Of a stretch of 31,562 bases of DNA, positions 617 through 30,223 are shown piece after piece; the stretch's first letter is position 1; each line of letters opens with the position of its first letter. The DNA is from a virus. Lineage: Duplodnaviria > Heunggongvirae > Uroviricota > Caudoviricetes. The stretch lies in IMG/VR virus record IMGVR_UViG_2645727555_000016, positions 1 through 31,562 of that record. One strand, 5' to 3'. A program made the translations under genes and the position numbers. The notes beneath the pieces are model-generated. The model had not been told where the DNA came from. It did not search any database and saw only the letters and a list, made by a program, of their open reading frames with translations.

Positions 617-639
617 GATAAGTAAGTACTAATTTACTA
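617..639 (+). promoter_or_regulatory. Conserved intergenic motif GATAAGTAAGTACTAATTTACTA (instance 1 of a recurring GATAAGTAAGTAC family), 53 bp upstream of the L-like start
   Basis: Near-identical 13-mer cores recur in the same orientation at 13064, 18110 and 23613, each upstream of a gene start. Confidence 0.45.
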
Positions 640-691
640 TTATTGTGGCGCTGACAGGATGTTAGCGCCTACTTATTTCAAGGATGAAACA

Positions 692-1390
692 ATGGGAATT
701 AAAGCTGATATTCAGAGCTTATCTCCCTCTGCACTCATTGAGTTGTTCGTATTGGATATGTCGAACACAACTTCAGGGGGGAAGCTATTCTTCCACGCCG
801 GAACAAACGAACTGATGCAACCGGTCGTCTGGCAAGGAGTGACATACGAGCCGTGGCCAATCAAAGCATCAGGCTTTGACAAAACTGGCCAGGGAACGTT
901 GCCACGTCCAAAAATTCAGGTATCGAACTTTGCCGGAACCGTCTCTGCGGAAGTTCAGGCGAACGATGATCTTGTTGGCTGCCGCATTATTCGCAAGATG
1001 ACGCTGGCTCGCTTCCTCGATGCCGTTAATTTTAAAGACGGCAACCCAACAGCAGATCCAAACCAACATTTCCCGGATGAAATGTGGTTTATCGAACAGA
1101 AAACTCTCGAAACTCATCAGGTTGTCGAGTTTGAATTGTCCAGTGTGTTCGATTTGATGGGGGTGCAACTGCCGTATCGTCAGATCATTAAAAACACCTG
1201 CCCGTGGAAATACCGAGGGCCAGAATGCGGCTATACCGGTCCATATTTCGACAAAAATAACCAGCAGACGTCTATGTCTGGTGCGGATTACTGCACAAAA
1301 CGTTATGACGCCTGTAATGCGCGTCGGAATTATTTTGCCGACGGTGTGATCCATTTTGGCGGATTTATTGGAGCTACGCGGTATGGGTAA
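692..1390 (+). CDS. Phage minor tail protein L-like (lambda gpL-like)
   Basis: ORF 659..1390; likely true start ATG 692 (MGIKADIQ) preceded by AGGA RBS; position between M-like and K-like genes. Confidence 0.8.
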   Translation: MGIKADIQSLSPSALIELFVLDMSNTTSGGKLFFHAGTNELMQPVVWQGVTYEPWPIKASGFDKTGQGTLPRPKIQVSNFAGTVSAEVQANDDLVGCRIIRKMTLARFLDAVNFKDGNPTADPNQHFPDEMWFIEQKTLETHQVVEFELSSVFDLMGVQLPYRQIIKNTCPWKYRGPECGYTGPYFDKNNQQTSMSGADYCTKRYDACNARRNYFADGVIHFGGFIGATRYG

Positions 1391-2180
1391 TAAAGCAATC
1401 CATGAGCTTGGCTCTGACGTTATGCAGCAAATCTATCTCTGCGCCATAAATCGCTACCCTAATGAAGCGTGTGGCTTTCTGGTTAGAACTAATGGCGACA
1501 AATATCGCTTTATGGAAGCGCGGAATGTTTCGGAGAACCCGCAGAACACTTTTGTAATGCACGTTGACGACATTATGGCGGCAGAGGATGCGGGTGATGT
1601 TATCGCAATCTGGCATTCACATACTGATGAATCAGCAGAGGCATCTGATGCCGATCGTGCAGGCTGCGAAGCGACGGAAGTTCCGTGGATGATTCTGGCT
1701 ATTCGCAAGAATGTTGAGGGAGATGCCCCTTTCCATTTTAGCGAGATGAATGTGATCACTCCTGATGGTTTCGAAATGCCATACCTGGGCAGACCGTATG
1801 TATTTGGCGTATTCGATTGCTGGATGTTGTGTCGGGACTATTTGAAGCGTGAGTTTAACGTCGAACTAAACCCGAACGCACACCTGCATATTCCATCGTG
1901 GTACACCGGCGATAACGACATTCTCGATCAGAACTACCGTAACGAGGGATTGGTGCGTCTTGCGCCCGGAACAGAGCCTCAACGTGGGGACGTATTCTTT
2001 ATCCAATACGGGAAAATGCCTGACCACTGCGCGGTTTATATCGGCGATGGAATGATTCTTCATCACCAGATCGACCGCCTAAGTTGTCGTGCTTATTACG
2101 GCGGAATGTATCAGAAACATACGACGCATCACTTGCGTCACAGAGACTTGCTCAAGGGAGATGAGACGTGTCTGAGTTAG
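1383..2180 (+). CDS. Tail assembly protein K-like (JAB/MPN metalloprotease domain plus NlpC/P60 cysteine peptidase domain)
   Basis: JAMM motif HSHTDESAEASDAD (HxH-x7-S-x2-D) preceded by a conserved Glu (NEACGFLV); NlpC/P60-like Cys (FDCWMLCRDY) and downstream His (PDHCAVYIGDGMILHH); start uncertain (1356/1383/1422). Confidence 0.8.
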   Translation: MGNKAIHELGSDVMQQIYLCAINRYPNEACGFLVRTNGDKYRFMEARNVSENPQNTFVMHVDDIMAAEDAGDVIAIWHSHTDESAEASDADRAGCEATEVPWMILAIRKNVEGDAPFHFSEMNVITPDGFEMPYLGRPYVFGVFDCWMLCRDYLKREFNVELNPNAHLHIPSWYTGDNDILDQNYRNEGLVRLAPGTEPQRGDVFFIQYGKMPDHCAVYIGDGMILHHQIDRLSCRAYYGGMYQKHTTHHLRHRDLLKGDETCLS

Positions 2181-2758
2181 TTCATGTGCAGCTTGGCGGC
2201 CCTATGGCCAAACATTTTGGCCGCCACTGGCATCTAAAGGTGCGTAATACAAAACAGGCTCTGGATTTAATTGAGGCCAACAAGCCTGGGTTTAAAGCAT
2301 GGATGAAGCGCAATATCAAAACCTATGACAGATACCACATCCAGATCACCAATAAACAGGGCCACAAGTGGTCTGTGGACGAGAGTGAATATCAGATGAT
2401 GGGGCAGTCTGACAATATTGCAAAAATCCGCATTACCCCTGTTCCGCGAGGAAGTGGTGGATCTGCTTTTGGATGGTTTCAGACGGTTGTTGGAGCAGTA
2501 TTAATGGTTGCCTCGATATGGGTGCCCGCTCTTGCGCCTCTCGGTTTGTCACTGATGATGGGCGGTATAGCGCAAATCATATCTCCGCAAGCCACTAACG
2601 AAAGTGTGAGGCAGGCGGATAACTCGAACTCTTATTACTTTGATGGACCTCAAAACACAACAAACCAGGGGAACCCTGTACAGCTTATCTATGGCGAGGA
2701 AATTTTAGTTGGCTCACAGGTCGTGAGTTCTTCTATCACCATCGACCAGCTTATGTAA
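2168..2758 (+). CDS. Tail assembly protein I-like (lambda gpI-like)
   Basis: 196-aa ORF between K-like and J-like genes with a hydrophobic central segment; overlaps the K-like stop as in lambdoid tail modules. Confidence 0.7.
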   Translation: MSELVHVQLGGPMAKHFGRHWHLKVRNTKQALDLIEANKPGFKAWMKRNIKTYDRYHIQITNKQGHKWSVDESEYQMMGQSDNIAKIRITPVPRGSGGSAFGWFQTVVGAVLMVASIWVPALAPLGLSLMMGGIAQIISPQATNESVRQADNSNSYYFDGPQNTTNQGNPVQLIYGEEILVGSQVVSSSITIDQLM

Positions 2759-2769
2759 TCAAGGATTTT

Positions 2770-5700
2770 TTGGACATGGAACAGTTCAAGAAGAAAAAAT
2801 TACCGCTTCTTATTGCCGGTGCTGGTGGCAAGAAAAGTAAAAGCTCCAGCCGTACCCCGGTTGAAGCTGATGATACTGTCAATTCTCGTGCTATGGCAGC
2901 CATCCTCGACCTTCTTGGCGAGGGGGTTATCGGTGGCCTGGTAAATGGCGCAAAGTCGATCTTCATCGACGATTTACCGATCTTGAATGAAGATGGCTCT
3001 TCCAACTTCAGCGGTATTACATGGGATTTTCGTGACGGCTCACAAGATCAGACGCCAATGGCTGGTTTTGATTTTGTCGAAACGCCTAAGTCCGTAAATA
3101 TTCAGCTTAAAAAAACACACGACGTTACGGTTTCAATCGATAACGATGAAGCTGATCGCGTTCGTGTCATCATGAAATTCCCCTCTTTACGTAGCGTTGA
3201 TAAAAGCTCTGGCGATACAAATGGCACTACGGTGAAGTACAAATTCCAGATCGCCAACGCAGACGCAACATTTTCTGATGTAGTGGCAGAAGGTGAGAAA
3301 AGCGTTGATATCACGCTAACGGCAAAGAAAACCGGCGTGTATTACCGTAGCTATGAGCTGAAACTGCCTAAGCCTGGTCGTGCATACAAGGTTAGGGTGA
3401 TTCGTCTTACAGATGATAATAGTAGCCAGTACCTCTACAACGACACATGGGTTGATTCCATCGGTGAGATTGTCGACACGCCAATGAACTACCCTAACTC
3501 TGCTCTTGTTGGCTTGAAGGTCAATTCAGAGCAGTTTGGTAGCACAATGCCTTCCCGTTCGTATTTGGTGCGCGGTATCAAAATCCGAGTACCGTCAAAC
3601 TACAACGAATACACCAATACTTATGTCGGCGTATGGGACGGTACTTTTAAGCTGTTGTCTTCTTCAAACCCTGCGTGGATTCTCTACGATTTGCTTACCA
3701 ATACTCGGTATGGTCTTGGGCAATTTGTGTCGGAATCCATGATTGACCTCGGCCAGCTCTACCAGATTGGTCGATATTGTGACGAAGAGGTCGATGATGG
3801 CTTTGGGGGTAAAGAGAAACGCTTTGCAATCAATACGCAGATCACCAGTCGACAAGACGCATACCGATTAATTCAGGATATTGCCGGTGCATTCCGCGGC
3901 ATGGTGTTTTGGGCTGGTGGCATGGTTAACATCATGCAGGATAGCCCATCAGATCCGGTAATGATGTTTACCAACTCCAACGTCAAAGATGGACTGTTTA
4001 CCTATAAAGGTTCTGCGCGTAAAGATCGCCCATCCGTTGCGCTCGTAACCTACAACAACAAGGAGGACGGTTATAAGCAAAATATCGAGTACGTTGAAGA
4101 TCAGGACGCAATGCGCCGTTATGGTGAGCGTAAAACAGAAGTCGTAGCATTTGGATGTACAAGCCGAGGCCAGGCTCACCGAGTTGGTTTGTGGCTTTTG
4201 TATACCGCCAGAATGGAGTCGGATGTAATTACATTTACTGCCGGCTTAGACGCCTCATTTCTGATGCCCGGTGAAACCGTTCTGATTCAGAACAAATATC
4301 GTGCAGGTAAACGTAACTCCGGTCGAATTGTGGAGTTTACCAAAAACAGCATCACTCTCGATGCGCCTGTGTCGTTAGCTAAAAGCGGCAGCTTTATTCG
4401 GATATTGAATCAGGAAGGCAAAATCGTTGAACGCGATGTTCTTGAAACTGGCGAAAACATAACAAAGGTTACGTTTTCAAAAGCCCTGTCGTCAGCGGAA
4501 ACGCCTGTTTTGAACGGTGTCTGGACAATTACAGAACCAGATCTCGAACCTATGCGCGTTCGCATCGTTAACATCGCACAGGGGGAAACGCCGGGTAGCT
4601 TTGACATCACCGCTGTTGAGAACAATCCGTCTAAATATGAGGCAATCGACAATGGTGCAACGCTGATCCCGCAGAATACGACGGTATTGGACCCAACTTA
4701 CTCCAAGCCATCTAATCTGCAAATCACTGAAGGGACTTATCTCTCAAGCCCGGGCAACCTGTCAGTAAAACTGACTGCAACATGGGAAGGGAAATCTCCA
4801 GAGTATTGGATCAGTTGGCGACGTTCTGATGAAAACAATGTATCGAACTGGCAATCGGCGCGTGTAACCGAAGAGCAATACGAAATCGTTAATGTCGCGG
4901 AGAATGGACGCTACGACTTCCAGCTGTATGCGGTTTCATTCAACGGTAAAAAAACAGAGATTATCAGTACCGTTTATCAGGTGTTGGGCACAATGACACC
5001 GCCGGATGCCCCAACGTCATTAACGGCCGTTGGAGACTATCGTAATGTGATACTGAATTGGGTTAATCCAGATTCGGTAGACCTTGATCACATTAATGTT
5101 TACGCATCCCAGACCAACAATCTGGATACGGCGAAACTGATCGCAGAGTCTGCAAGCACCACCTTTACACATGCTGGTCTTGGGGATAGCGAAACGTGGT
5201 ATTACTGGGTTCGAGCATCGAACAAGCGAGGTATGTTAAGTCCTCCGAACTCAAACTTGGGTACAGAGGCGACAACTCGCGATGTACTGTCGTTCCTGAC
5301 TGGCAAAATTACATCTTCCGAGCTTGGTCAGGCTCTGCTTGAGGACATCAACAGCAAAGCCTCTCAAGAAGCAGTTGACGAGTTAAATGAGCATATCAAC
5401 CAGAGCGTCGAATCTTTGGAGGGGGCGGTAAACGACGTTAAGGAAGATATAGCTGAATTAGATAAGCAGTTCAGCGATAACCTCGCGGATTTTGAAATAA
5501 AATTCAACGAGCGTAGCGATGCTTTGGAGAACGCACAAACCGAGCTTAAAGGTGAGGTTTCGGCAACGATCGACAAGGTCAATGAAGCGTTTGAAAAAAT
5601 TGATGCTACTGATGCTGCAATTGTTGAAATCGAAAACACCGTATCTGAACACGATAAAGCTCTCGCTAATACAGTCGAGGCAATAAAGGCTGCAAGAGAT

Positions 5701-7500: not shown

Positions 7501-7533
7501 TGGTGGAAAAAAAATTTTATATCGGTAAAAATA

Positions 7534-7553
7534 GGTGAGTATTTACTTAATGG
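7534..7553 (+). promoter_or_regulatory. Palindromic variant of the GATAAGTA motif (GGTGAGTA-TT-TACTTAAT) about 40 bp upstream of the tail-fibre gene, followed by GC hairpin GGCGGGC-N7-GCCCGCC
   Basis: Imperfect inverted repeat of the GTGAGTA/TACTTAA half-sites read directly; resembles the palindromes at 26286 and 22704. Confidence 0.35.
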
Positions 7554-7593: not shown

Positions 7594-10500
7594 ATGTGGT
7601 ACAGGGAAGGTACTATCACATTTACACAGGGTAGCAATACTCTGGTTGGGGCAGGGACAGCCTGGAACGTAACAGCTAATGGTGTGTTGCCGGGGATGAT
7701 CGTCATTGGCCCCGACAATAAGCTGTATGAGATCAAGCGCGTAACAAGCGATACGAATATTGTTCTCTCAGAACCTTATACCGGCGAAACTCAGTCTGAG
7801 GTTCCGTGCCGAATCATTACGACCTATGAAGGCGACTTAACACAGTTTAGCGCGCGCTTTACTGCGCTAATGTCGCGTATGTCGGCTGATTCCAAGTCCA
7901 TGCGCAGTTGGTTGACTACGCTGGATGAGGTGACAATCGAGCGTGAAGACGGTACAGAAGTGACCGTTAAGCCGCTGATACAGATTGTCAACGAGCACAA
8001 CGAAAACGTTGAGTGGTATAAAAATAACACCGACGCGATTGACGCTGCTGGCGACAAAGCTCGTGAGGCGGCGGCCAGTGCTGCCGCAGCAGCAGAAAGC
8101 GCCAATACCGCTGGAGAAAAAGCCTCTCAAGCGTCTCAAAGTGCATCCGCTGCAGAGTCCTCAAAAAGCGCGGCGGCCACCAGTGCCGGTGCCGCGAAAA
8201 CGTCTGAAACGAATGCTGCAGCGTCACAAAAATCTGCAGCCACTTCTGCATCCACCGCGACCACGAAGGCGTCAGAAGCTGCCACCTCAGCCCGGGATGC
8301 GGCGGCCTCAAAAGAGGCAGCGAAATCATCAGAAACGAGCGCAGCCTCGAGCGCCAGTAATGCCGCTTCCTCGGCAACGGCGGCAGGAAATTCCGCGAAG
8401 GCGGCAAAAACGTCCGAGACGAACGCCAGGTCTTCTGAAACGGCAGCGGGACAGAGCGCCTCGGCTGCGGCAGGCTCAAAAACAGCGGCTGCGTCGTCTG
8501 CCAGTGCCGCGTCAACAAGTGCCGGGCAGGCCTCAGCCAGTGCCACCGCCGCCGGAAAATCGGCAGAAAGTGCCGCATCGTCTGCTTCAACAGCCACAAC
8601 GAAGGCTGGCCAAGCCACTGAACAGGCCAGCGCAGCAGCGAGGTCTGCTTCCGCAGCGAAGACATCCGAAACGAACGCGAAAGCGTCGGAAACCAGCGCA
8701 GAATCCTCAAAAACGGCTGCCGCATCGTCAGCCAGTTCGGCGTCGTCATCGGCATCATCTGCGTCTGCTTCAAAAGATGAGGCGACCAGACAGGCGTCAG
8801 CAGCGAAGGGTAGCGCCACGACGGCATCCACGAAGGCGACAGAGGCAGCTGGCAGTGCGACGGCAGCAGCTCAGAGCAAAACTGCTGCTGAATCCGCTGC
8901 GACCCGTGCGGAAGCTGCTGCTGATCGTGCTGAAGAGATTGCCGGTGCAGTTGCGATGGAAGACGCAAGCCTTACAACTAAAGGTGTTGTGAAACTTAGC
9001 AGTGCTGTCGATAGCACCAGCGAATCACTGGCTGCAACTCCAAAGGCAGTTAAAGCTGCGAATGACAATGCGAATAGCCGATTGGCGAAGAGTCAGAATG
9101 GCGCTGATATCCCAGACAAGGGCCGCTTCCTGAGTAACATTAATGTTTACAGCAAAGGTGAAGTGGATAAGAAAAAGGGGATGCGAAAATACACTTTCTC
9201 TGCTCCTGCAAATGCAGTAAGCGGTAAGTGGTATCCTGTAGTCTTTCGCCGAACTGGTGGTGGCACAGATGAATTAGCCTCACGAGTGGTTATCACCACT
9301 TATTCCTCAGCTGGCGGATACGCCATGAATAATTGTGAATTTAATGGGTTTGTTATGCCTGGCGGTTGGTCTGATCGCGGTTCATATGCGGCTGGTTTTT
9401 TCTCAATATATTCTACTGCTGAGCGAGCCATACACTCGATTATCGCAAGCGTGAAAGATGATGATTTGTGTAGTGTATTTTACGTTGAGACAAGAGCATT
9501 CCCTATCCAGATTTTTGCTGAGGAAGGATTAAATGTGATTGTTCCAACGGCTGATTATGCAGTTGGTCAAACCACTTATAAGTGGGGGGCAACTGATCCT
9601 TTATCAGAAAGTACGAATGCACAGATAATTTTGGACTTTAAAAATGGACGAGGTTATTACTGTTCACATCCATTTATTTCAAGTCTTTCAGGAAATGCTG
9701 CTACAGCCACGAAATTGCAGACGGCAAGATCTATCGGTGGAGTTGTTTTCGACGGTTCTGCAAATATTAACCTTCCAGGTGTAAACACTACGGGTAATCA
9801 GAACACCACTGGTAATGCTGCAACTGCTACAAAACTTCAGACGGTAAGAAAAATATCCGGTGTTCCATTTGATGGTTCTACTGATATCACTTTAACCGCT
9901 GCGCATGTTGCCGCTTTCGCAAGAAGGGCAACAGGGTCATATGCGGATGCTGATGGTGGCGTGCCGTGGAATGCTGAATCTGGTGCTTACAATGTAAATA
10001 GAACAGGCGACAGTTATATTCTTGCCAACTTTTATACCGGAGTCGGAAGTTGCCGGACCCTGCAGATGAAGGCGCATTACAGAAATGGTGGTCTGTTCTA
10101 CCGTTCTTCAAGAGATGGCTATGGTTTTGAAAGTGGTTGGGAGCAGGTTTACACGACTGGATTTATGCCTCAGCCGGCTGATATAAACGCGCCAACCGCT
10201 GCCGCTGGATGGTTAAATAGTGGTAACGGAACGGCATTTACGACTGCTCAATTTATAACTTGGCTAAATAATCAGGGGGCATTTACAAACAAACATTGGA
10301 TCGCACGGTGCTCATGGACTTACGCCAACAATAATTATATAGACGACACTGGTTGCGGTAGGATCGATCTATCTGGTTCCGTGATTGAGGTGTTTAGTAA
10401 TAAGGCAACAAGCCACTACACTATTCGTGTTACAACGACAACAACATCGGGTCATGGTGGTGTTAACAATGCGGAATTTATTTATGTGTACAATGGAAGT

Positions 10501-12834: not shown

Positions 12835-13065
12835 ATGAAAAGATTATTTCTAACAATAGCTGTTGTTCTCTCTCTTACTGGCTGCCAGAAATTGCCGACA
12901 CCTATATGTTATGGTGAAGCTATCATTGGTGGACAGGAGACAGTCATACCCATATATGCTGTTAAAAAAGTGAACGACTATACCTTATACAAAGCGGGTA
13001 GCATCTATAACTGGCGATGGGTTGGAGTAGGTGCTTTCTCATCAATCGGTTGCAATGCTGAATGA
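12835..13065 (+). CDS. Small lipoprotein; candidate Cor/Llp-type superinfection-exclusion lipoprotein
   Basis: 76 aa; signal peptide plus lipobox MKRLFLTIAVVLSLTGC; small lipoprotein genes directly after tail-fibre genes are typical of lambdoid phages (cor). Confidence 0.4.
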   Translation: MKRLFLTIAVVLSLTGCQKLPTPICYGEAIIGGQETVIPIYAVKKVNDYTLYKAGSIYNWRWVGVGAFSSIGCNAE

Positions 13066-13088
13066 TAGGTAAGTACACACCTACAACA
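13064..13088 (+). promoter_or_regulatory. Conserved intergenic motif GATAGGTAAGTACACACCTACAACA (instance 2 of the GATAAGTAAGTAC family)
   Basis: Matches instances 1, 3 and 4 over the 13-nt core and the downstream C-rich/CTAC segment. Confidence 0.45.
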
Positions 13089-17971: not shown

Positions 17972-18034
17972 GACCTGCTTCCGTATATAATAAGTATCTT
18001 AGTATATATATATATACGGAAGCAGGTCTTTTAA
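17972..18034. terminator. Long perfect 18-bp inverted repeat (GACCTGCTTCCGTATATA / TATATACGGAAGCAGGTC) with an AT-rich alternating TA loop, followed by TTTT; bidirectional terminator or recombination/origin-like hairpin
   Basis: Arms 17972..17989 and 18011..18028 are exact reverse complements; loop contains a (TA)n run; T-tract follows. Confidence 0.55.
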
Positions 18035-18109: not shown

Positions 18110-18132
18110 GATAAGTAAGTAACTACCTACCA
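18110..18132 (+). promoter_or_regulatory. Conserved intergenic motif GATAAGTAAGTAACTACCTACCA (instance 3), immediately upstream of the 18143 start
   Basis: 13-nt core identical to instance 1 except the last base; followed by a CTACC segment as in instances 2 and 4. Confidence 0.45.
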
Positions 18133-18142: not shown

Positions 18143-18883
18143 ATGAGCCAAATCTTTTTCGATACCATCGACAACGACCAGTACGACTTCATGACAGAGT
18201 GGAATACCGCTGTTATGGACAAGTGGGTCGCTGAAAACATTGGTTTGTCGCGCTGTAAAGACGAGGCTGAACTCTTCGAGACGAAGTGGTTTGATTACCG
18301 TGACATGCATCCTCTCATGGCCACCTGTCTTTTTACGGAGGCATACAAACGTCAGTACTCAAATATCATGCTGACGCACGGTCGCGAACACTTTGAAACA
18401 GCTCCGTTCACCACCGGGTTAAAACGCCTGCCTTATCAGGAGTTGTCGACTGCCAATAAAACGTCGCTATGGAAAGCACGCCAGTTTGCGGATCGCTATT
18501 GCTGCTCATACGACTACTTTATCTCCACCGTTCTTTCCGCAGCTGCACGACGGCTGTGGGACAAGCTGCCGCGCCCACAGCATTTGTGGCAGCCAGAACT
18601 GATTGAGATATTTGAAGAGAAATTAGCCAGACGCGCAACAACCCGTCTGGATGACTCTCTTGTTAGCTTTAAGCATATGGGAGACATGCAGTTCAACCCG
18701 ATTCAGGAAAGCTATTTTGAGTGGATTCTGGAGCGTTTGCGCACCATCCCTCGCAGCAAGCGCATACGCGCAATTTTCTCCGCTATCTGGCTAATGGAAA
18801 TCGTTCCAGAGCGCCTTATTTCCGCCCACTTTCCAGAAGAACTGGAAGAAGCACGGCGGTTTATTGATCCCCTATCTAATTAA
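18143..18883 (+). CDS. Hypothetical protein at the head of the replication module (possible helicase loader or initiator; unsupported)
   Basis: ORF 18134..18883 (GTG) with a likely ATG start at 18143; no recognisable motif; precedes the DnaB-like helicase. Confidence 0.4.
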   Translation: MSQIFFDTIDNDQYDFMTEWNTAVMDKWVAENIGLSRCKDEAELFETKWFDYRDMHPLMATCLFTEAYKRQYSNIMLTHGREHFETAPFTTGLKRLPYQELSTANKTSLWKARQFADRYCCSYDYFISTVLSAAARRLWDKLPRPQHLWQPELIEIFEEKLARRATTRLDDSLVSFKHMGDMQFNPIQESYFEWILERLRTIPRSKRIRAIFSAIWLMEIVPERLISAHFPEELEEARRFIDPLSN

Positions 18884-21530: not shown

Positions 21531-21531
21531 T

Positions 21532-22584
21532 TTAAGTTGTGGGAGACAGACGGTTCAGGACAAACGCAGCGATATTATTTAGTGCTATATTTAGCAAACT
21601 TGCATCATATGTTTGGTCGTTATCCTTAGGTTTAAAATTGCTGATACTGACTGTCTCACTGTGCTCATTTTCATAGAAACGTTTACTGCTTGAATCTAGG
21701 CGTTTGAGGACGTAAATTTGCCCAAATTCAATCCACTCACCTTCACCATTGAGTCCGCTCCCTGTTTTGACTGAGATGAAGTACTTTGCCAGCTTGGTTG
21801 TAATGCAGTCTTCATTTTTTTCTATGCAAACCTTAATGCCGGCGGCTTTCAAACTACGATAAATGCTGTTTGGATATGCCCCACTATAGATTTCGCTGCT
21901 TTCAATGATAATGACGTCGTATTCTTCCTTTGGCTCAATAGATAAAGCTTCAGGCTCCAAATCATCCTTGTGAAAAATAAATCCTAAAAGACGCTCAAGT
22001 TCATCTGTTAATTTGAACATGGGGTTCGCTTGGATCTCGCCAGCCCTGTCTTCGTAGACGAGACCCGAGGTTATGAGCTTATTTAGCGATCTCAGAGCCA
22101 TTCCACTTTTTTGTGATGTGAGGCTAACTTGGGCTAATACAGTTGATTTATAGCCTTTTATTGGCGAGCTTGTTGTGATGTAAAGTTTGCGCGCATATTC
22201 AATATCAAAGCAGGTTAACCCACTCAGTATGTGGATAAAAAATAGTTTTTCATCGTCGTTAAGGCTGCTGCGGGCTAGGCTTACCGTCAAGCGAATGTAG
22301 TATTCTGTTTTCTTGTCTTCATCATCAAGCACGAGCTTTTTGACTAACGCCGAAAAGTGTTCTCTTGAGATATCGACCTCATCGTCGCAAATTTCACCAA
22401 TGCCCATAATGTAACGGTTGAATCGATCACGACAAGTCGTCGCATTTATCTCTGAGAACAACGTGAACATTTTTTCCGCTGCCTCAATATGAGGTCCAAC
22501 AAGCGGTATAGATTTGGCAAACGCCAAACCAGTTTCTTTCAATACCTTCCTGTGTTGCATCACGTTTTTGGACAACGTTGTCAT
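21532..22584 (-). CDS. Hypothetical protein on the opposite strand, AT-rich; candidate moron (possible abortive-infection or defence cargo)
   Basis: 350-aa ORF, one of only two convincing minus-strand genes in the window; visibly lower GC than flanks; sits between the primase and a promoter-like AT-rich spacer. Confidence 0.5.
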   Translation of the reverse strand: MTTLSKNVMQHRKVLKETGLAFAKSIPLVGPHIEAAEKMFTLFSEINATTCRDRFNRYIMGIGEICDDEVDISREHFSALVKKLVLDDEDKKTEYYIRLTVSLARSSLNDDEKLFFIHILSGLTCFDIEYARKLYITTSSPIKGYKSTVLAQVSLTSQKSGMALRSLNKLITSGLVYEDRAGEIQANPMFKLTDELERLLGFIFHKDDLEPEALSIEPKEEYDVIIIESSEIYSGAYPNSIYRSLKAAGIKVCIEKNEDCITTKLAKYFISVKTGSGLNGEGEWIEFGQIYVLKRLDSSSKRFYENEHSETVSISNFKPKDNDQTYDASLLNIALNNIAAFVLNRLSPTT

Positions 22585-22703: not shown

Positions 22704-22724
22704 GATAAGTAGATACATACTTAT
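22704..22724 (+). promoter_or_regulatory. Palindromic GATAAGTA...TACTTAT site (ATAAGTA-N7-TACTTAT) in the divergent intergenic region between the minus-strand ORF and gene 22768
   Basis: Inverted repeat of the ATAAGTA half-site read directly; overlaps a TTGATA -35-like hexamer. Confidence 0.35.
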
Positions 22725-22767
22725 ATTTCTGTAAGAATATGCTCGACAAAGGAATTGAGGAACCTTT

Positions 22768-23579: not shown

Positions 23580-23601
23580 AGCCCCCTGGTGGGGCTTTTT
23601 T
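23580..23601 (+). terminator. Rho-independent terminator (AGCCCC-CTGGT-GGGGCT followed by TTTTT)
   Basis: GC stem and T-tract directly after the stop of ORF 22768..23562. Confidence 0.65.
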
Positions 23602-23612: not shown

Positions 23613-23635
23613 AATAAGTAAGTACACGACTACGG
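23613..23635 (+). promoter_or_regulatory. Conserved intergenic motif AATAAGTAAGTACACGACTACGG (instance 4), immediately upstream of the 23644 start
   Basis: Core AATAAGTAAGTAC plus ACnnCTAC segment, as in instances 2 and 3. Confidence 0.45.
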
Positions 23636-26285: not shown

Positions 26286-26307
26286 GATAAGTATTTACTT
26301 ACTTATC
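26286..26307. promoter_or_regulatory. Perfect palindrome GATAAGTA-TT-TACTTACTTATC built from the same GATAAGTAAGTA unit as the recurring motif; operator-like
   Basis: The right arm is the reverse complement of GATAAGTAAGTA; lies at the start of a gene-free structured region upstream of the tRNA cluster. Confidence 0.45.
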
Positions 26308-26666
26308 TTTTATGTATAAGATGACTTTGTTTTCGTTGAGACGCGACTGTTTGAACTTAAATACAAGTGCAAACGAAGAAGTCTATCTGGCAGTAGCCTA
26401 ATAAGCCAAACACCAGCGAGGTCAGTTTCCAGCCTCGTTACCGAAATGGGACACACTGAGCGAGTGTGATTGCAGAACGCAGGAGGGAACATTCATGTTC
26501 CCTCTGATGAAGTAACAGAATGGGCGGTCGTTATATTTTCAACTCAATATGACTCCCGGATTCTTAGCCACTGACCGCCCATCCTGTTACGTCATTTTGT
26601 TCAATTATGTCGTTTATACTGGGTTAAAAAGCGGCGGCGTAGCCCGGCTGGTATGGTTAGCCAGCA

Positions 26667-26788
26667 CACAACGTTGAGGCCATTACATTTTTATCAATTC
26701 TAAGGTTCTATTCACAGAGATACCGGCGAGCGTTGATATGTAACATGTTGGGCAAACATTCAATCGGAGTAGTGGCCTCAACGTTGTG
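26667..26788. repeat. Hairpin element A: 16-bp perfect inverted repeat (CACAACGTTGAGGCCA / TGGCCTCAACGTTGTG) flanking about 90 nt
   Basis: Arms 26667..26682 and 26773..26788 are exact reverse complements; arms share CTCAAC..TTGTG with elements B and C. Confidence 0.6.
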
Positions 26789-27052
26789 AAGACAGGATTG
26801 TTGTGTAGGTTTAACCACTGTTGCCATTGGTGCCTGTTTTCACAACAAATGATTCCATACATCACATTGTATAAATTACAAAGTAGGTGCTGTCCTCAGA
26901 AACATCATCTACTTAAAGATTTTGCCTTCTATTGAGCGAAGTCGAAAACGTCTGGCACTAACGAAAAGTGCAAGTAGCGGTGCGTTTATTGGCAAAAACT
27001 AACACCGCCGCGATTGGCACTGTTGAGTAATAAATACTGGCAGTGCTGAATT

Positions 27053-27127
27053 GATGGTGTAGCTCAGCGGTAGAGCAGTTGGCTGTTAACCAACTGGTCG
27101 GTGGTTCGAATCCACCCACCATCGCCA
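27053..27127 (+). tRNA. tRNA-Asn (anticodon GTT)
   Basis: Manual fold: acceptor GATGGTG/CACCATC, D-stem GCTC/GAGC, anticodon stem GTTGG/CCAAC with loop CTGTTAA, T-arm GGTGG-TTCGAAT-CCACC, discriminator G, encoded CCA. Confidence 0.75.
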
Positions 27128-27132
27128 ATTTA

Positions 27133-27219
27133 GGGGAGTTAGTCCGTAGAGGTAGCGGTGTAGACTGTAAATCTACTGTCATGGCGACTCGGGTGGTTCG
27201 ACTCCATCACTCCCCACCA
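27133..27219 (+). tRNA. tRNA-Tyr (anticodon GTA), class II with long variable arm
   Basis: Acceptor GGGGAGT/ACTCCCC, anticodon stem GTAGA/TCTAC with loop CTGTAAA, variable arm with GTC/GAC stem, T-arm GGTGG-TTCGACT-CCATC, encoded CCA; D-arm is non-canonical. Confidence 0.55.
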
Positions 27220-27223
27220 AATT

Positions 27224-27299
27224 GCCGGTTTAGCTCAGTTGGTAGAGCAGTCGCTTTGTAAGCGAATGGCCAGCGGTTCAAGTCCGTTAACCGGCACCA
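27224..27299 (+). tRNA. tRNA-Thr (anticodon TGT)
   Basis: Acceptor GCCGGTT/AACCGGC, D-stem GCTC/GAGC, anticodon stem GTCGC/GCGAA (one mismatch) with loop TTTGTAA, T-arm AGCGG-TTCAAGT-CCGTT, encoded CCA. Confidence 0.7.
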
Positions 27300-27304
27300 A
27301 CATA

Positions 27305-27395
27305 ATATTGAGAACATTGGCGTAACGGGGTCATATCCCAATCTATGAATAAATGTTGCGTTGCCGCGTGACAACCAGTGTTCTCAACATTGTGG
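27305..27395. repeat. Hairpin element B: imperfect inverted repeat (ATATTGAGAACATTGG / CCAGTGTTCTCAACATT) between tRNA-Thr and tRNA-Ser
   Basis: Two mismatches in a 16-17-bp repeat; shares the CTCAAC..TTGTG arm signature with elements A and C. Confidence 0.5.
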
Positions 27396-27494
27396 TGAAT
27401 GCACAGGCTGATGTGCCGCAACTACAGTAGTGCGCGCTTTGCGGGGCTTGCTACAACCCTGTGTCGGAGATCAGCACCGACCACCACAATCACT

Positions 27495-27581
27495 GGAGAG
27501 TAGGGAGCATGGTGCTCAAGCGGTCTTGAAAACCGTCCCATTGCGCAAGCGATGATGGTTCGATTCCATTACTCTCCGCCA
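27495..27581 (+). tRNA. tRNA-Ser (anticodon TGA), class II with long variable arm
   Basis: Acceptor GGAGAGT/ACTCTCC, anticodon stem GCGGT/ACCGT with loop CTTGAAA, long variable arm, T-arm GATGG-TTCGATT-CCATT, discriminator G, encoded CCA; D-arm slightly irregular. Confidence 0.55.
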
Positions 27582-27584
27582 GAC

Positions 27585-27660
27585 ACAGCGTTGAGCGGTT
27601 TGGCCTTTTAATCACCCAGATTAAGACTCCGCTAACATAAACCAGACCGCTCAACGCTGT
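27585..27660. repeat. Hairpin element C: 16-bp perfect inverted repeat (CACAGCGTTGAGCGGT / ACCGCTCAACGCTGTG) immediately 3' of tRNA-Ser
   Basis: Arms 27585..27600 and 27645..27660 are exact reverse complements; same arm signature as elements A and B. Confidence 0.6.
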
Positions 27661-27735
27661 GATAGACAATTACGGCAGACGTTCTTAACCATAGCTTGCT
27701 AACATCCTAGCAACACTTTTTTCAGCGCAAAATTC

Positions 27736-27758
27736 AAAGGGGCTTCGGCCCCTTTTTT
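27736..27758 (+). terminator. Rho-independent terminator (GGGGC-TTCG-GCCCC followed by TTTTTT), likely ending the tRNA transcription unit; A-tract upstream may allow bidirectional use
   Basis: Perfect GC stem with tetraloop and 6-T tract read directly. Confidence 0.7.
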
Positions 27759-27885
27759 ACTGGGTTGACTCCAGAATATTTCCAGGTATGGTTTTACCAC
27801 TTTTGGGTCTTCATTTAGCAACGGCAGCATTAGACTGCCTGCATGTGGGTGACAGGATGTGGCAGAAAAACATGGAGATAAGCCA

Positions 27886-28440
27886 ATGAATAAGCGCAAC
27901 CTCAATATTCTTGCCTCTCTGGTAATCATGCTCGCTCTGACGGGATGTAACGAATCGGAGATCGACAAAATTACCTTAATAGGTAGAGATAAAAGCGATC
28001 TTGCACAGAACTATAAAGCCCAGTTCCAAGAGCAAACACCCAGTATTGAGGTATTCGCTCTTCAAGATAAAAATGCACCGAATGAACAGGAACCACATAC
28101 GCATGGAAATCTCATTGATGGAAAGGTTGAATCGTCTTTAACGACAAATGTCGGTAAGTATACGTTCATGCAGATCGGTGAAATGATGACAAGGGAGTAC
28201 GGAAAACCGGTAGCAACGAAAGACAGAATTTTCGACCAAGAAGCTATCTCAGGTATGGACTGTATTGAGACAAAGACCTGTGGTGCAGGCAAGTATTATG
28301 AAGTCTATCGAGGGAAGGATCGTTTAGTAATGGTGATTAACGGTGCAGGCTTTGTGAACGAAAAAGAGGGTGTAACATTGCTTTCTATCACCGATAAGAT
28401 GATTAAAGTTTCACGCTTGAAAGAAGACAAACGCAAATAG
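27886..28440 (+). CDS. Lipoprotein (secreted or outer-membrane), cargo-like
   Basis: ORF 27859..28440; likely start ATG 27886 after GGAGA; signal peptide plus lipobox MNKRNLNILASLVIMLALTGC. Confidence 0.5.
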   Translation: MNKRNLNILASLVIMLALTGCNESEIDKITLIGRDKSDLAQNYKAQFQEQTPSIEVFALQDKNAPNEQEPHTHGNLIDGKVESSLTTNVGKYTFMQIGEMMTREYGKPVATKDRIFDQEAISGMDCIETKTCGAGKYYEVYRGKDRLVMVINGAGFVNEKEGVTLLSITDKMIKVSRLKEDKRK

Positions 28441-28454
28441 CAAATAGCCATAGA

Positions 28455-28982
28455 TTGTTTAACACTGCGAGGTTAAATGTGAGTAACAGAGATGATTTTT
28501 CCCCATCGGTGAAGCGAACACTAGCCGAACGCGTAGGCTGGAAGTGCTCTTATCCTAGCTGCAACCAGACAACTGTAGGTCCAGATAGCAGCAATACAAA
28601 CGGCAGGATTAATAATGGTATTGCGGCCCATATTACAGCAGCAGCGCCAGGTGGACCGAGATATGATCATAGCTTAACCCCAGAACAGCGAAGCTCGATT
28701 GATAACGGTATATGGATGTGTCGTTCACATGCCGCACTCATTGATTCTGACAAATATGCCTATTCCGTTGAGCAATTAAAAAACTGGAAGACACTGGCCG
28801 AAACTCAGCAATCTTTACTGCTTCAAATGGCGCACCAGGTGAGCCAGAATAATTACTCAGAAAGAGACGTCGATGTTCTAAAAGCTATTACTGATATTTT
28901 TAATTATAACTACCTCCAAATGCTGAAGAGCGAACCGTTCCGGGCAAAAGGTTCATGGTTAACCAACTGGTCAACCCTCTAA
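28455..28982 (+). CDS. HNH/His-Me-finger-like protein candidate (start uncertain; ORF track start is TTG)
   Basis: Cys pair CSYPSC, then AAHITAA and NGIWMCRSHAALID, resembling a C-x-C...H...N...H nuclease arrangement; 3' end overlaps the recombinase ORF. Confidence 0.3.
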   Translation: MFNTARLNVSNRDDFSPSVKRTLAERVGWKCSYPSCNQTTVGPDSSNTNGRINNGIAAHITAAAPGGPRYDHSLTPEQRSSIDNGIWMCRSHAALIDSDKYAYSVEQLKNWKTLAETQQSLLLQMAHQVSQNNYSERDVDVLKAITDIFNYNYLQMLKSEPFRAKGSWLTNWSTL

Positions 28983-29797
28983 TATTGGATGGCAAAATTG
29001 TTATGGGCCGCCGCGTTTTCTCTCTGATGAAGCAGTTCCTTAGCTGGTGCGCCTTCCAGGGGATGATAGACGTGTCACCGTTAAACGATATGTCACTAAA
29101 CAAAGTTGCCGGTGGCGCAAAGCCCACACCTCGCGAGCGGAAGCTGACCGACGCAGAGGTATGGGTGTTCTGGAATATATGGGACTACTTCAATGTGTGC
29201 GCTGGTACAAAATGGGCGGCCAGGCTGTGTCTTGTATCAGCAAGACGACCTGACGAAGTACTGCGGGCTAAAAAAAGTGAGTTCAATCTTAAGCGTGGGG
29301 TTTGGAATCAAGGCAAAAGAAACAAGTCAGCACGTGAGCATTCGCTGCCTTTAAGCACATTAATGCGCACATGCATTGAAGAGTTGTTCGAATACGGTAA
29401 AGACAGCCAGTGGCTCGTGCCTTCGAATAAAAAAATCGGGAAAGACCTTCCTATGTCTAAAGTGGCAATATCCCAGGCATTACGTCGTATTCTGGAACGA
29501 CCAGAACTGATGGAGCTTGAGCCATTTACACCCCGAGATTTGCGCCGTACTGCGCGTAGTTACTTCCCAGCATTAGGCATAAGCCAGGAGGTATCACGCA
29601 AAATTATGAACCACAGTCTTGAGGGGATAGATCGGGTCTACGACCGGCACGATTATATGGACGAGATGCGAGACGCCTTAGAAAGTTTCTCGACGTACAT
29701 CGCATCAATCGTAGAGCAACCGGATTTAGACGAAATTGACCACAAATTCAAGGGAGATCGTCTATCAACAGAGCTTATTCGTGTAAATTTTTCATAG
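28955..29797 (+). pseudogene. P4-type tyrosine recombinase/integrase, N-terminally truncated (catalytic domain only); probable remnant
   Basis: C-terminal signature PFTPRDLRRTARSY...IMNHSLEGIDRVYDRHDY resembles P4-family integrase boxes (R...HxLRRT...H...Y), but Arg replaces the usual His in HDLRR and the roughly 100-150-aa N-terminal arm-binding region is absent. Confidence 0.55.
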
Positions 29798-30178
29798 AGA
29801 CTTTATGGCCTCAACAACCTTTTGTGATGCGCCTTTCTCTTTACCGAATCGCTCGTTATATGCAGCAAGAACCTGTTTTTCGTCCTCGTTAAGAGGAGCG
29901 GTGCCTTCTTTGTATAAAAATGCTGCGAGTTCAGGTTGGCGTTCTTCCAGCACCATCATCATTAGACGACTTGGCTCAATACCCAGCGCCAGCGCCAACG
30001 GACGAACCTTATCGATAGGCAAAGGAATTTTGCCACTTTTAATTAAAGAAAGGTTGTTGGCATTTTTATAACCAATAAGTCTGGCTATTTGGGCCTGACT
30101 CATAGGTGAGGATTCAATCAGCCCTGCGATAAAAGCAGCATAGCGACTTTCTATAAATTCAATCTTGTTGTCAGACAT
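29792..30178 (-). CDS. XRE-family helix-turn-helix transcriptional regulator (Cro/CI-like)
   Basis: HTH segment SQAQIARLIGYKNANNLSLIKSG near the N-terminus; 128 aa; divergently oriented to downstream + strand genes, with a palindrome in its upstream region. Confidence 0.6.
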   Translation of the reverse strand: MSDNKIEFIESRYAAFIAGLIESSPMSQAQIARLIGYKNANNLSLIKSGKIPLPIDKVRPLALALGIEPSRLMMMVLEERQPELAAFLYKEGTAPLNEDEKQVLAAYNERFGKEKGASQKVVEAIKSL

Positions 30179-30209
30179 TGTTACAACCTTTGCGCGTTTA
30201 ATTCTCTCT

Positions 30210-30223
30210 GGTAAGTGCTTACC
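30210..30223. promoter_or_regulatory. Palindromic operator candidate GGTAAG-TG-CTTACC, 32 bp upstream of the XRE regulator start
   Basis: Perfect 6-bp inverted repeat; the GGTAAGT half-site matches the core of the recurring motif. Confidence 0.4.

Follow-up and report, generated by a model that had tools for sequence, protein, structure and literature searches.

A dispersed 22-bp palindrome in an SSU5-like phage-plasmid, most likely bound by a single regulator of phage origin

The window, the whole stretch of 31,562 nucleotides that was analysed, is DNA from an SSU5-like phage-plasmid and contains eight copies of a 22-bp palindrome. Most likely a single regulator encoded by the phage binds this palindrome. 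We tentatively regard the sites as operators of the conserved XRE-family repressor of these phages, which may keep the lytic genes off in the lysogen. No description of the 22-bp motif was found in the literature consulted.

The palindrome and its copies in the window

A preliminary description of this DNA had reported four 13-mers on the + strand, at 617, 13064, 18110 and 23613, preceding the L-like, the holin-like and the replication-module lead genes and gene 23644. The coordinates were confirmed, and the 13-mers end 11–62 nt before the start codons. The proposed view of them as oriented, direct promoter-like sites was not supported: they are palindromes with degenerate right arms, and the orientation bias was weak genome-wide. 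The GATAAGTAAGTAC words are half-sites of a 22-bp dyad, GATAAGTAAGTACTTACTTATC, which is the true unit and the enteric consensus. The 'CTAC' segment reported after three of the 13-mers is indeed present, but represents the decayed right arm of this palindrome.

In the window RATARGTAAGTAM was matched five times against 0.01 expected, and none of 100 shuffles contained five or more matches; four matches are on the + strand (617, 13064, 18110 and 23613) and the fifth exact match is on the - strand (26295). Sites were scored with a 22-mer weight matrix, using cut-offs of at least 10 or at least 8. This gave seven sites of at least 10 in the window (0.15 expected) and eight non-overlapping sites of at least 8, every one of them outside the gene map. 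Among the palindromes described earlier, those at 26286 and 22704 were recovered as such, the one placed at 7534 was found to span 7530–7551, and the one at 30210 held for its inner 14 bp only. The copies, and two isolated half-sites, are listed below (strand given for the half-sites).

617–638: site, GATAAGTAAGTACTAATTTACT, score 24.5, at the junction of the M-like and L-like tail genes; left arm perfect, right arm decayed
7530–7551: site, AATAGGTGAGTATTTACTTAAT, score 22.8, at the junction of the J-like tail gene with the tail-fibre gene
13064–13085: site, GATAGGTAAGTACACACCTACA, score 21.9, overlapping the stop codon of gene 12835–13065
18110–18131: site, GATAAGTAAGTAACTACCTACC, score 26.3, 11 nt 5' of the replication-module lead gene (ATG at 18143)
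22704–22725: palindrome, GATAAGTAGATACATACTTATA, score 25.1, ahead of gene 22768 in a divergent gap
23613–23634: site, AATAAGTAAGTACACGACTACG, 9 nt ahead of gene 23644
26286–26307: best palindrome of the window, GATAAGTATTTACTTACTTATC, score 29.3, past the last small gene and 5' of the tRNA cluster
30206–30227: core-only site, inner 14 bp GGTAAGTGCTTACC at 30210–30223, outer arms absent
30326–30334, + strand: isolated half-site, ATAGGTAAG, intergenic, with the XRE gene and gene 30429 on either side
30395–30404, - strand: isolated half-site, reading CTTACCATAG on the + strand, just 5' of the TATAAG box before gene 30429

Orthologous copies were located for the sites at 617 (Cyrano 15528, SSU5 15588 and Klebsiella 53620, the palindrome being fuller in Klebsiella), 7530 (Cyrano 22447, SSU5 21936), 13064 (Cyrano 26656, SSU5 27473, Klebsiella 69441), 18110 (Cyrano 31295, SSU5 33599, Klebsiella 74982) and 23613 (Cyrano 35606, SSU5 39086, Klebsiella 80737). 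The 13064 site lies 49 nt before the holin-like gene; in its orthologs the upstream flanks are unalignable, but the core of the motif is retained, as is the block TGTGATATAAAT downstream of it. The 18110 site is directly followed by a Shine-Dalgarno sequence, and a strong terminator (17974–18026) lies 84 nt ahead of it. Another terminator (23580–23596) precedes the 23613 site, of which the left arm alone is recognisable (left arm 16.6, right arm -7.4). A GC-rich hairpin is located 3' of the 7530 site.

As noted earlier, the motif does not fit the sigma-70 consensus, and no fixed -35 or -10 partner of the motif was found. A sigma-70-like match (TGGATA-N17-TATTAT) overlaps the 617 site, and the extended -10-like box at the 22704 site, TGTAAGAAT (22730–22738), is kept in Cyrano, SSU5 and Klebsiella. 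The 26286 site has an internal TTTACT (26294–26299) which is followed, after a 17-nt spacer, by TAAGAT (26317–26322), an arrangement conserved in SSU5. Overall, -10-like boxes either overlap motif position 22 or lie 4, 9 or ~17 nt 3' of the motif, and certain sites adjoin a Shine-Dalgarno sequence or ATG. In view of the variable geometry to the -10-like boxes, an operator suits the element better than an activator site.

Distribution, conservation and nature of the element

Cyrano, SSU5 and Klebsiella pJN2-26 carry ~30 copies per ~105-kb genome; sites scoring at least 10 numbered 38 in SSU5 (0.15 expected) and 35 in Cyrano (0.4 expected). The sites were not spread over coding DNA: in the three full genomes 27 of 30, 28 of 31 and 26 of 29 (~90%) were intergenic, against an intergenic share of the genome of 12–13% (binomial P ~1e-20), and motif words led the intergenic-specific 7-mers in an unbiased k-mer ranking. 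They are found where a short gap precedes a lytic transcription unit (genes for structure, lysis, replication and nucleotide metabolism), some of them within late operons (terL/portal, M/L, J/fibre). No site was present upstream of the parA operon in the genome-wide site maps.

The copies occupy orthologous junctions in relatives, where 75% of the motif columns were invariant versus 48% of the flanks, even with unalignable flanks. The core AGTAAG-NN-CTTACT is common to all lineages. The outer arms or the centre are lineage-specific in Acinetobacter (TATTAGTAAGCGCTTACTAATA), in Aeromonas (GATCAGTAARYRYTTACTGATC), in one IMG/VR contig and in a second Klebsiella lineage. This combination of a shared core and lineage-specific versions suggests that the binder is probably encoded by the phage and has co-evolved with its site.

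Many sites lie just past stop codons, beside GC-rich hairpins or terminators, and the 26286 site, alone among the eight window sites, folds into a stable hairpin (-8.3 kcal/mol, z -7.3). The palindromes could thus be imagined to work as RNA, in termination, processing or mRNA stabilisation, which we consider extremely improbable. The arms vary independently (covariation z = 0.24, -1.07 and 0.18), their positions being conserved as sequence and not as pairs. Folding was weak for the other seven window sites (-1 to -5.3 kcal/mol, five of the seven no better than shuffles), with no pairing at all for the 18110 and 23613 sites, and the sites have no T-run and match no Rfam family. Because of the independent arms and the weak folds, the element is classified as a DNA site of a dimeric protein, whose binding is a prediction. 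The earlier suggestion that the sites are shared by one DNA-binding protein agrees with an element that is family-specific, dyad-symmetric and conserved, and that recurs at many modules.

Candidate binding proteins

The features around the XRE gene are as follows.

29792–30178, - strand: XRE-family regulator gene, 128 aa, with a weak HTH_19 match; phrog_8 'transcriptional regulator'
30225–30252, - strand: predicted XRE promoter, TTTACA-N16-TAATAT, from a consensus scan alone
30429–30641, + strand: small gene, 70 aa, phrog_2627 of unknown function, divergent from XRE in a Cro-like position; its Cyrano ortholog, CYRAN_46, was up 6.4 log2 in macrophages at 6 h

In the explanation that we tentatively prefer, the XRE-family repressor would be produced in the plasmid-prophage state and, as a dimer, would occupy the dispersed operators together with one on its own promoter. 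Such occupancy would silence the many lytic promoters, or transcripts reading through, much as phage P1 does with its dispersed C1 operators. XRE is the leading candidate because its gene is a core gene of the family (homologs in 961 plasmid records, versus 966 with portal), shows lysogen expression, carries a site on its predicted promoter and is absent from SSU5, which has been described as a virulent phage. SSU5 has lost the gene in a recent deletion of ~6.7 kb, as compared with Enterobacter plasmids that are 99% identical to it. The protein is 98% identical to CYRAN_45, and its best-conserved segment is the recognition helix, NANN(L/I)SLIKSG. The GGTAAGTGCTTACC core sits 32 nt before the start codon of XRE, just 3' of the predicted -10 and around the expected transcription start. 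This core and the adjacent -10 and -35 boxes are conserved in Cyrano and Klebsiella, including both promoter hexamers in the latter, and motif-like sites also occur upstream of the XRE homologs of Acinetobacter and Aeromonas. In the Cyrano lysogen, CYRAN_45 was expressed at 96 units versus a background of 9.8 (~10-fold). The ParB-like CYRAN_119 was at the floor and CYRAN_120 and CYRAN_123 were at background, so that among the candidate binders lysogen expression was seen for XRE only.

Several findings argue against XRE. The outer arm positions ATA/TAT rank among the best conserved in the dispersed sites but are absent from the XRE-proximal site. Two promoters under strong sites appear active in the lysogen, namely those of CYRAN_34 (ortholog of gene 22768, 2–3.4 log2 over its upstream neighbour) and of the tRNA region past the best palindrome. 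In macrophages at 6 h the XRE mRNA rises alongside the genes downstream of motif sites, and sites within late operons are unusual for a lysogeny repressor. A junction-level expression test against gap-matched controls was not significant. Finally, three other candidates are equally conserved, two ParB/Srx-like proteins and one winged-helix protein. The earlier proposal of XRE as the binder is therefore plausible, short of proof; we infer that a protein binds, that XRE is this protein and that repression is the effect.

Modelled on Lpa in P1 or MotA in T4, the palindrome could instead be an element of activator-dependent lytic (middle/late) promoters lacking a -35 box, bound by a post-induction phage protein that recruits host RNA polymerase. 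Candidate activators would be the 88-aa winged-helix protein (CYRAN_123 family), encoded just 5' of terS as lpa lies ahead of pacA, and the ParB/Srx-like proteins, all silent in the lysogen. Most lytic units, late genes included, are preceded by sites; sigma-70 consensus matches are ~2-fold depleted and the sites have no -35 box. The 3' arm with two flanking bases reads TAT(C/T)AT at a fixed position in 21–53% of enteric sites, Acinetobacter arms end in TATAAT or TAATAT, and the Lpa box of P1, AAGTNACTT, is similar to the motif centre, AAGTACTT. In the lysogen, sites with a good -10 box had basal activity and the other sites were silent, and in macrophages at 6 h the largest neighbour-to-neighbour jumps coincided with motif junctions (+2.5, +3.6 and +3.65 log2). 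Nevertheless, we consider an activator rather unlikely: a fixed-distance -10 box is not general and is absent in Aeromonas, many sites abut a Shine-Dalgarno sequence or ATG and so leave no room for a downstream start site, and the element is symmetric with little bias in orientation. Expression drops rather than rises at the M-to-L junction, and no Lpa homolog was detected (tblastn and phmmer, E at least 0.02; hhalign, probability 0.1%).

It is improbable, in our opinion, that the sites load or bind the two conserved ParB/Srx-domain proteins for KorB-like or Noc-like silencing or genome organisation. Two ParB N-domain proteins (37–42% identity) occur in all lineages and match Spo0J, ParB, Noc and KorB structures, and in every lineage a site lies directly 5' of the first ParB-like gene (Cyrano 105106, Klebsiella 34778, Acinetobacter 72442, Aeromonas 90376). 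The C-terminal segment of ParB1 (HQTMRFKV...AGEALVWL) is strongly conserved, and the C-terminal domain might bind DNA; many dispersed palindromes at variable promoter distances are also the KorB-OB pattern. However, the expected helix-turn-helix region is poorly conserved and indel-rich, the motif measures 22 bp versus 13–16 bp, and with lysogen expression of both genes no higher than floor or background, the proteins cannot maintain silencing there.

Recruitment of the host nucleoid-occlusion factor SlmA, which would tie inhibition of FtsZ ring assembly to the plasmid or to replicating phage DNA, seems very improbable. We know of no SlmA in Acinetobacter, which carries the motif. The consensus centre GTAAGT|ACTTAC does fit the published specificity: the SlmA-binding sequence (SBS), GTGAGTACTCAC, requires G, T, A and G at positions 1, 2, 4 and 5, whereas position 3 may be either purine (Kd ~60 nM for A) and position 6 either pyrimidine (PMC3020112). 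At motif position 11, 99% of sites have a pyrimidine, and 14–18 sites per enteric genome are within one mismatch of GTRAGYRCTYAC, versus ~2 expected; the E. coli chromosome has only 24–52 SBS. Strict fits, however, number only 1–6 per genome, and the 30210 core site is the sole strict SlmA-type 12-mer in the window. T3 and A4, beyond the SBS, are conserved like the core, position 8 is A in 86% and G in 3% of sites although SlmA takes both, and SBS position 5 is mostly A, which impairs SlmA binding, in the second Klebsiella lineage and Aeromonas. The lineage-specific arms point to a co-evolving phage protein.

Comparison with known systems

The central 12 bp of the consensus meet the measured SlmA specificity, but the SBS of E. 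coli are 12 bp long, mostly intragenic and not at promoters, whereas the sites described here are 22 bp and intergenic, with key SBS positions broken in two lineages. The linear phage-plasmid N15 has palindromic SopB centromere repeats scattered among its phage genes; these are four partition-linked sites, compared with ~30 here and none upstream of the parA operon. In the KorB-OB system of IncP plasmids (RK2/RP4) and the Noc-NBS system, a ParB-family protein acts on a dozen to tens of dispersed palindromes, in global regulation and at variable promoter distances. ParB-family genes with an upstream site are conserved here as well, but the 22-bp site is unrelated in sequence to the 13–14 bp sites of those systems, and the ParB-like proteins are lysogen-silent and have no conserved helix-turn-helix segment.

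Phage P1 offers two parallels. Its Lpa system comprises about a dozen dispersed phage-specific promoters in which the short inverted repeat AAGTNACTT replaces the -35 box, and in both phages a small DNA-binding gene lies ahead of the terminase genes. The sites described here differ in that the middle base is missing from their centre, 22 bp are conserved as a unit and no -10 box stands at a constant spacing of 4 bp; moreover, they extend beyond late genes, and an Lpa homolog was not found. The C1 system likewise belongs to a plasmid prophage, with one repressor and many operators at variable promoter positions across a ~95-kb genome; the retrieved stretches of the P1 record annotate Oref, Omat, Ossb, Oc4, OrepL and Olpa. 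The operators of P1 are 17 bp long and asymmetric, and C1 is unrelated to the XRE protein, here the candidate binder, whereas the sites of the SSU5-like phage-plasmids are 22-bp palindromes that are more numerous and also lie inside late structural operons.

A 22-bp dyad in the window and its relatives

The 13-mer RATARGTAAGTAM was found five times in the window, where 0.01 copies are expected. Four copies are located on the + strand at the positions of the direct sites claimed in the preliminary description, 11-62 nt ahead of start codons, and the fifth (26295, - strand) is the other arm of the palindrome at 26286. In scans of full genomes the 13-mer turned out to be part of a 22-bp dyad, GATAAGTAAGTACTTACTTATC, of which it forms the left arm and the centre. 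The CTAC tail that had been noted behind some of the direct sites is present, but it is the decayed right arm of this palindrome and not a separate segment. The sites in the window are as follows:

617, + strand, 13-mer between the M-like and L-like tail genes
7530, palindrome
13064, + strand, 13-mer ahead of the holin gene
18110, + strand, 13-mer ahead of the replication lead gene
22704, palindrome
23613, + strand, 13-mer ahead of gene 23644
26286, palindrome
30210, inner 14 bp of the dyad only, GGTAAGTGCTTACC, near the XRE-family regulator gene (29792-30178, - strand)

Of the four palindromes proposed earlier, those at 26286, 22704 and 7530 (first placed at 7534) are real, but the one at 30210 is reduced to its core.

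Allowing up to 7 mismatches, the dyad was matched 7 times in the window, 34 times in SSU5 and 33 times in Cyrano (expected 0.4, 1.5 and 2.5, respectively). A symmetrised weight matrix yielded 30 non-overlapping sites in SSU5, 31 in Cyrano, 29 in Klebsiella pJN2-26 and 8 in the window. At M/L, at terL/portal and after the capsid gene, the Klebsiella orthologs form almost perfect palindromes. In an exact-word scan of viral contigs the matches were mostly solitary and probably due to chance; the sole true relative was one contig of 103 kb. No mention of the motif strings, or of any SSU5 operator, was found in the literature searched. The motif is a family-wide palindromic regulatory site with about 30 copies, larger than the preliminary description saw and undescribed in that literature.

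In total five full relatives were compared (SSU5, Cyrano, pJN2-26, an Acinetobacter plasmid and an Aeromonas plasmid), together with 50 kb of a second Klebsiella lineage, strain STEFF_14. Across two thirds of its length the window shares 94-96% identity with the Escherichia phage-plasmids CMS-2020a and Cyrano (pLF82); its identity to Salmonella phage SSU5 is 83.5%. It contains distal tail and lysis genes, the parA operon, the replication module, a tRNA cluster, an integrase gene, the XRE-family gene in divergent orientation and the first part of a CobT-like gene. Within the tail-fibre gene, positions 8001-9000 have a GC content of 60%, versus about 46% elsewhere. They match side tail fibres of lambdoid and Stx phages at 86-94% identity, a sign that this fibre module was exchanged horizontally. 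The tRNA cluster (27053-27581) consists of four genes, Asn-GTT, Tyr-GTA, Thr-TGT and Ser-TGA, of which three only are above the Rfam threshold; the Cyrano annotation has Asn, Thr and Ser. The integrase frame (28853-29797) matches the Cyrano integrase from residue 54 on, with DNA similarity starting near 28945; it is either a mosaic joint or an integrase truncated at the N terminus. Adjoining the 22704 site is a variable locus (21532-22584, - strand), flanked by the primase gene and gene 22768. It holds a gene of 350 aa (phrog_22938, function unknown); at this place SSU5 and Klebsiella also have a gene and Cyrano has none.

The lineages could be distinguished by their versions of the dyad. In the Acinetobacter plasmid (portal 52% identical) it reads TATTAGTAAGCGCTTACTAATA, with 35 copies of which 30 are intergenic, and in the Aeromonas plasmid GATCAGTAARYRYTTACTGATC, with 27 sites versus 0.2 expected, 25 of them intergenic. 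The 103-kb IMG/VR contig has CTTAAGTAAGTACTTACTTAAG and the STEFF_14 lineage GATAAGTAAAYATTTACTTATC. The core AGTAAG-NN-CTTACT is invariant, and the outer arms and centre shift together across all sites of one lineage. These concerted changes, which differ between two lineages that both dwell in Klebsiella, argue for a co-evolving phage protein over a host protein, and the motif is probably the binding site of a phage-encoded regulator. The lineage versions offer a natural system in which to follow how a regulator and its dozens of targets evolve together.

Placement of the sites and their probable recognition as DNA

In three full genomes, 27 of 30, 28 of 31 and 26 of 29 sites are intergenic, with intergenic DNA making up 12-13% of each genome (binomial P of about 1e-20). 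Occurrence within coding DNA at the chance rate, which the preliminary description had named as an argument against a regulatory motif, was thus not seen, about 90% of the sites being intergenic. Sites are kept at orthologous junctions in the related phages. Among the structural and lysis genes these are terL/portal, the 3' end of portal, after the capsid gene, before the major tail gene, M/L, J/fibre and before holin. The others are before the replication lead gene, the tRNAs, NrdA, ThyX, Dam, RNase H and the first ParB-like gene, and UvsY/gp32. When the eight window sites were aligned to their orthologs, 75% of the motif columns were invariant versus 48% of the flanking columns, even with unalignable flanks included. 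When 7-mers were ranked without bias by how many intergenic segments they occur in, motif words also came out on top. Second in intergenic over-representation was a recurrent translation-initiation context, AGGAAAACACATG (intergenic regions of Cyrano, SSU5 and Klebsiella; locus L049).

A role as partition centromere was rejected, since no site is present upstream of the parA operon. This operon ends (17974-18026) in an inverted repeat that is long and perfect, CCTGCTTCCGTATATA...TATATACGGAAGCAGG, with a T-run behind it and a motif-like half site within its loop. Near-identical copies are present in Cyrano (31174, 78094 and 108356) and SSU5 (33468 and 78318), so this is a repeated terminator cassette.

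It is extremely unlikely that the palindromes act as RNA structure. The arms show no covariation, their complementarity being equal to that of column-shuffled arms (z = 0.24, -1.07 and 0.18). Seven of the eight window sites fold with only -1 to -5.3 kcal/mol, and five of these seven do not surpass shuffled sequences; for two of the direct sites no pairing at all was obtained. An Rfam search returned tRNAs only and no structured-RNA family at the sites. On the covariation and folding tests, an RNA hairpin or intrinsic terminator was rejected; the sites do not form a stable, compensated stem with a T-run. Instead, each arm is independently kept toward one consensus, a pattern typical of DNA-binding proteins that act as a symmetric dimer or as a dimer of dimers.

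A separate stem-loop, GGCGCT-gacaggatgtt-AGCGCC, follows the 617 site immediately (647-669), in the gap that separates the M-like gene from the L-like one. In Klebsiella its stem shows the compensatory replacement CAACG...CGTTG, with the loop ACAGGATGT kept. The loop contains the ATG annotated as the start of L in Cyrano; SSU5 and Klebsiella annotate a later ATG. In the Cyrano RNA-seq data L is 1.9-3.8 log2 under M. This stem-loop may be a conserved RNA structure controlling the expression of L.

The preliminary description had also regarded the four direct sites as oriented, promoter-like elements. The 5' arm is slightly better conserved than the 3' arm, not significantly so in five of six genome sets and marginally in Acinetobacter (P = 0.047), and an oriented element was rejected on this ground. 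No conserved columns were found past about 2 nt outside the palindrome. The -10-like boxes have varied offsets: TATTAT overlaps motif position 22 at M/L, TGTAAGAAT begins 4 nt past the 22704 site, TAAGAT 9 nt past the 26286 site and TGATATAAAT about 17 nt past the holin site. A Shine-Dalgarno sequence or ATG directly adjoins several sites. The 3' arm with two flanking bases reads TAT(C/T)AT in 21-53% of enteric sites, but not in Aeromonas. The sites fit neither a promoter of fixed geometry nor an oriented element. The same description had held that the motif is not a sigma-70 consensus, and in this it was correct: no consistent -35 or -10 was seen, and a sigma-70 promoter was rejected for that reason. 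Matches to the sigma-70 consensus (-35/-10, spacing 16-18 bp) occur at about half the rate seen in shuffles (11 versus 24.1, 9 versus 21.9 and 13 versus 22.4; window and Cyrano 85-100 kb, locus L005 35000-50000), and 617 is the only site to coincide with one.

Candidate regulators and expression at the sites

Four DNA-binding candidates are encoded in every lineage examined: XRE, two proteins with a ParB/Srx domain and a winged-helix protein of 88 aa encoded just before terS. Outside this set, CYRAN_114 (locus L006 780-1301) is a full-length protein with an FljA-type 'repressor of phase-1 flagellin' domain (Pfam E 1e-80), kept in SSU5 and Klebsiella. The Acinetobacter plasmid (NZ_CP096767, locus L042 17847-18512) has a gene for a sigma factor of the sigma-70 family, located between those for a MoxR-like ATPase and DNA polymerase III alpha; BLASTP found no counterpart of it in the enteric lineages.

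We tentatively regard the sites as dispersed operators of XRE, the candidate repressor, a reading that we rate at somewhat short of even. XRE homologs are present in 961 plasmid records versus 966 with portal, with equal genus distribution. The Cyrano ortholog CYRAN_45, 98% identical to the window protein, was listed as a putative repressor in the study of the LF82 lysogen. In the RNA-seq data of that study it reached 96 units in the lysogen against a background of 9.8; the ParB-like candidate CYRAN_119 was at the floor, and CYRAN_120 (ParB-like) and CYRAN_123 (winged-helix family) were at background. The 30210 core palindrome is located just downstream of the -10 of the predicted XRE promoter, both hexamers of which are kept in Klebsiella. 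Within this otherwise fast-evolving protein, conservation is highest in the recognition helix, NANN(L/I)SLIKSG. As in an operator regulon of the C1 type, many dispersed sites of one consensus lie near lytic genes, and the gene of the candidate repressor XRE is transcribed in the lysogen and has a core site at its own predicted promoter. Against XRE, the outer arms are missing from its own site, CYRAN_34 and the tRNA region, each with a strong site upstream, are active in the lysogen, and XRE mRNA rises alongside site-adjacent genes in macrophages.

The argument that XRE is not the binder, since SSU5 has 30 sites and no XRE, was withdrawn, as near-identical Enterobacter plasmids carry the int-XRE block. 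SSU5 is 99% identical in the flanks to Enterobacter plasmids that have a block of about 6.7 kb exactly at the SSU5 gap (NC_018843, around 42650; compared with NZ_CP103753 41500-53000, locus L045). The block contains genes for PhoH, Gp49, glutaredoxin, YafO toxin, integrase and XRE, and a small gene in the Cro position. The flank identity and the missing block mark SSU5, the type phage of the group, as a recent repressor-deletion derivative. A published abstract describes SSU5 as a virulent phage, which fits this reading.

In Cyrano the sites coincide with steps in expression. In macrophages at 6 h the biggest jumps between neighbouring genes were at motif junctions, from CYRAN_11 to 12 (+2.5 log2), 55 to 56 (+3.6) and 59 to 60 (+3.65), and at the M/L junction there was a drop of 1.9 log2. 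Where the upstream gene is expressed, big drops were found at motif junctions, e.g. about -6 from CYRAN_30 to 31. The absolute change was larger at motif junctions than at all others (P = 0.02-0.05 in three conditions), with no significant excess over motif-free junctions with gaps of at least 40 nt. In the lysogen most genes downstream of sites were at background, CYRAN_34 and the tRNA region excepted. These data indicate that the sites mark boundaries of transcription units. They serve the operator reading and that of an activator-dependent lytic promoter element equally; we consider the latter possible, though rather doubtful.

A clamp or silencer site for a ParB-like protein is unlikely. 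The two proteins have ParB_N domain matches (E 3e-13 and 1e-8), and a site is present upstream of the first ParB-like gene in four lineages. Their alignment to Spo0J reaches residue 154, the HTH segment is poorly conserved across lineages, and the site has 22 bp versus a palindrome of 13-16 bp. A locus search with the XRE alignment returned close relatives only and did not separate the candidates. Comparison of recognition helices with motif variants (XRE, both ParB-like proteins and the winged-helix protein) found all compatible and none discriminating.

SSU5-like phage-plasmids are common, with about 960 PLSDB records containing both portal and XRE genes. Carriers include Yersinia pestis plasmids and many clinical plasmids of E. 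coli, Klebsiella, Enterobacter and Acinetobacter, some with resistance genes. Regulation of this group is essentially unstudied. A single 22-bp site marking about 30 lytic transcription units provides a concrete regulon map and a shortlist of four regulators, and one oligonucleotide with four proteins makes a ready assay for the switch between plasmid maintenance and lysis.

Comparison with known regulatory systems

The host protein SlmA binds a 12-bp palindrome, the SBS, GTRAGY-RCTYAC (PMC3020112), and the central 12 bp of the consensus satisfy this published specificity. The sites might then recruit and activate SlmA, with the centre GTAAGT-ACTTAC as a high-affinity SBS, and block septation over or around the plasmid or replicating phage DNA; we consider this very unlikely. 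At about 5 copies per cell, each with about 15 near-consensus sites, the plasmid would bring in more of them than the 24-52 on the chromosome. Strict SBS matches number 1-6 per genome, and 14-18 sites are within one mismatch versus about 2 expected; in the window the only strict match is at the XRE-proximal site (30211-30222). Positions outside the SBS are conserved equally. The key SBS positions are not kept wherever the host has SlmA: they are broken in the STEFF_14 lineage (GTAAAY-RTTTAC) and in most Aeromonas sites, which have A at SBS position 5. Few strict sites, equally conserved outer positions and two broken lineages make SlmA binding at most a side effect or secondary function. If true, SlmA recruitment would be a DNA-encoded manipulation of host division by a mobile element, possibly layered upon binding of the phage regulator, and the match is a cheap, testable lead to such a link.

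For the ParB-like candidates the analogues are KorB with OB and Noc with NBS. For the dyad itself, the nearest functional analogues are both found in phage P1. Lpa binds the late promoters of P1 (n = 11) at an inverted repeat of 9 bp, AAGTNACTT, whose centre is near -22. In six taken from the P1 record, all of the form AAGT/AAAT-N-ACTW, the repeat is followed by 4 bp and then the -10. The 8-bp centre of our motif, AAGTACTT, resembles this repeat except that the middle base is absent, and it is embedded in a 22-bp palindrome. The fixed 4-bp spacing is not kept either, the -10-like boxes being variable, and absent in Aeromonas. No Lpa homolog was found (best tblastn/phmmer E 0.02-0.3; hhalign of the winged-helix family with Lpa, probability 0.1%). 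Membership of the Lpa promoter class was rejected on box centre, -10 spacing and the homolog search. The other analogue is the C1 repressor, with operators scattered across the P1 plasmid prophage. We place the sites described here in this class of scattered binding sites for a global regulator of a phage or plasmid.
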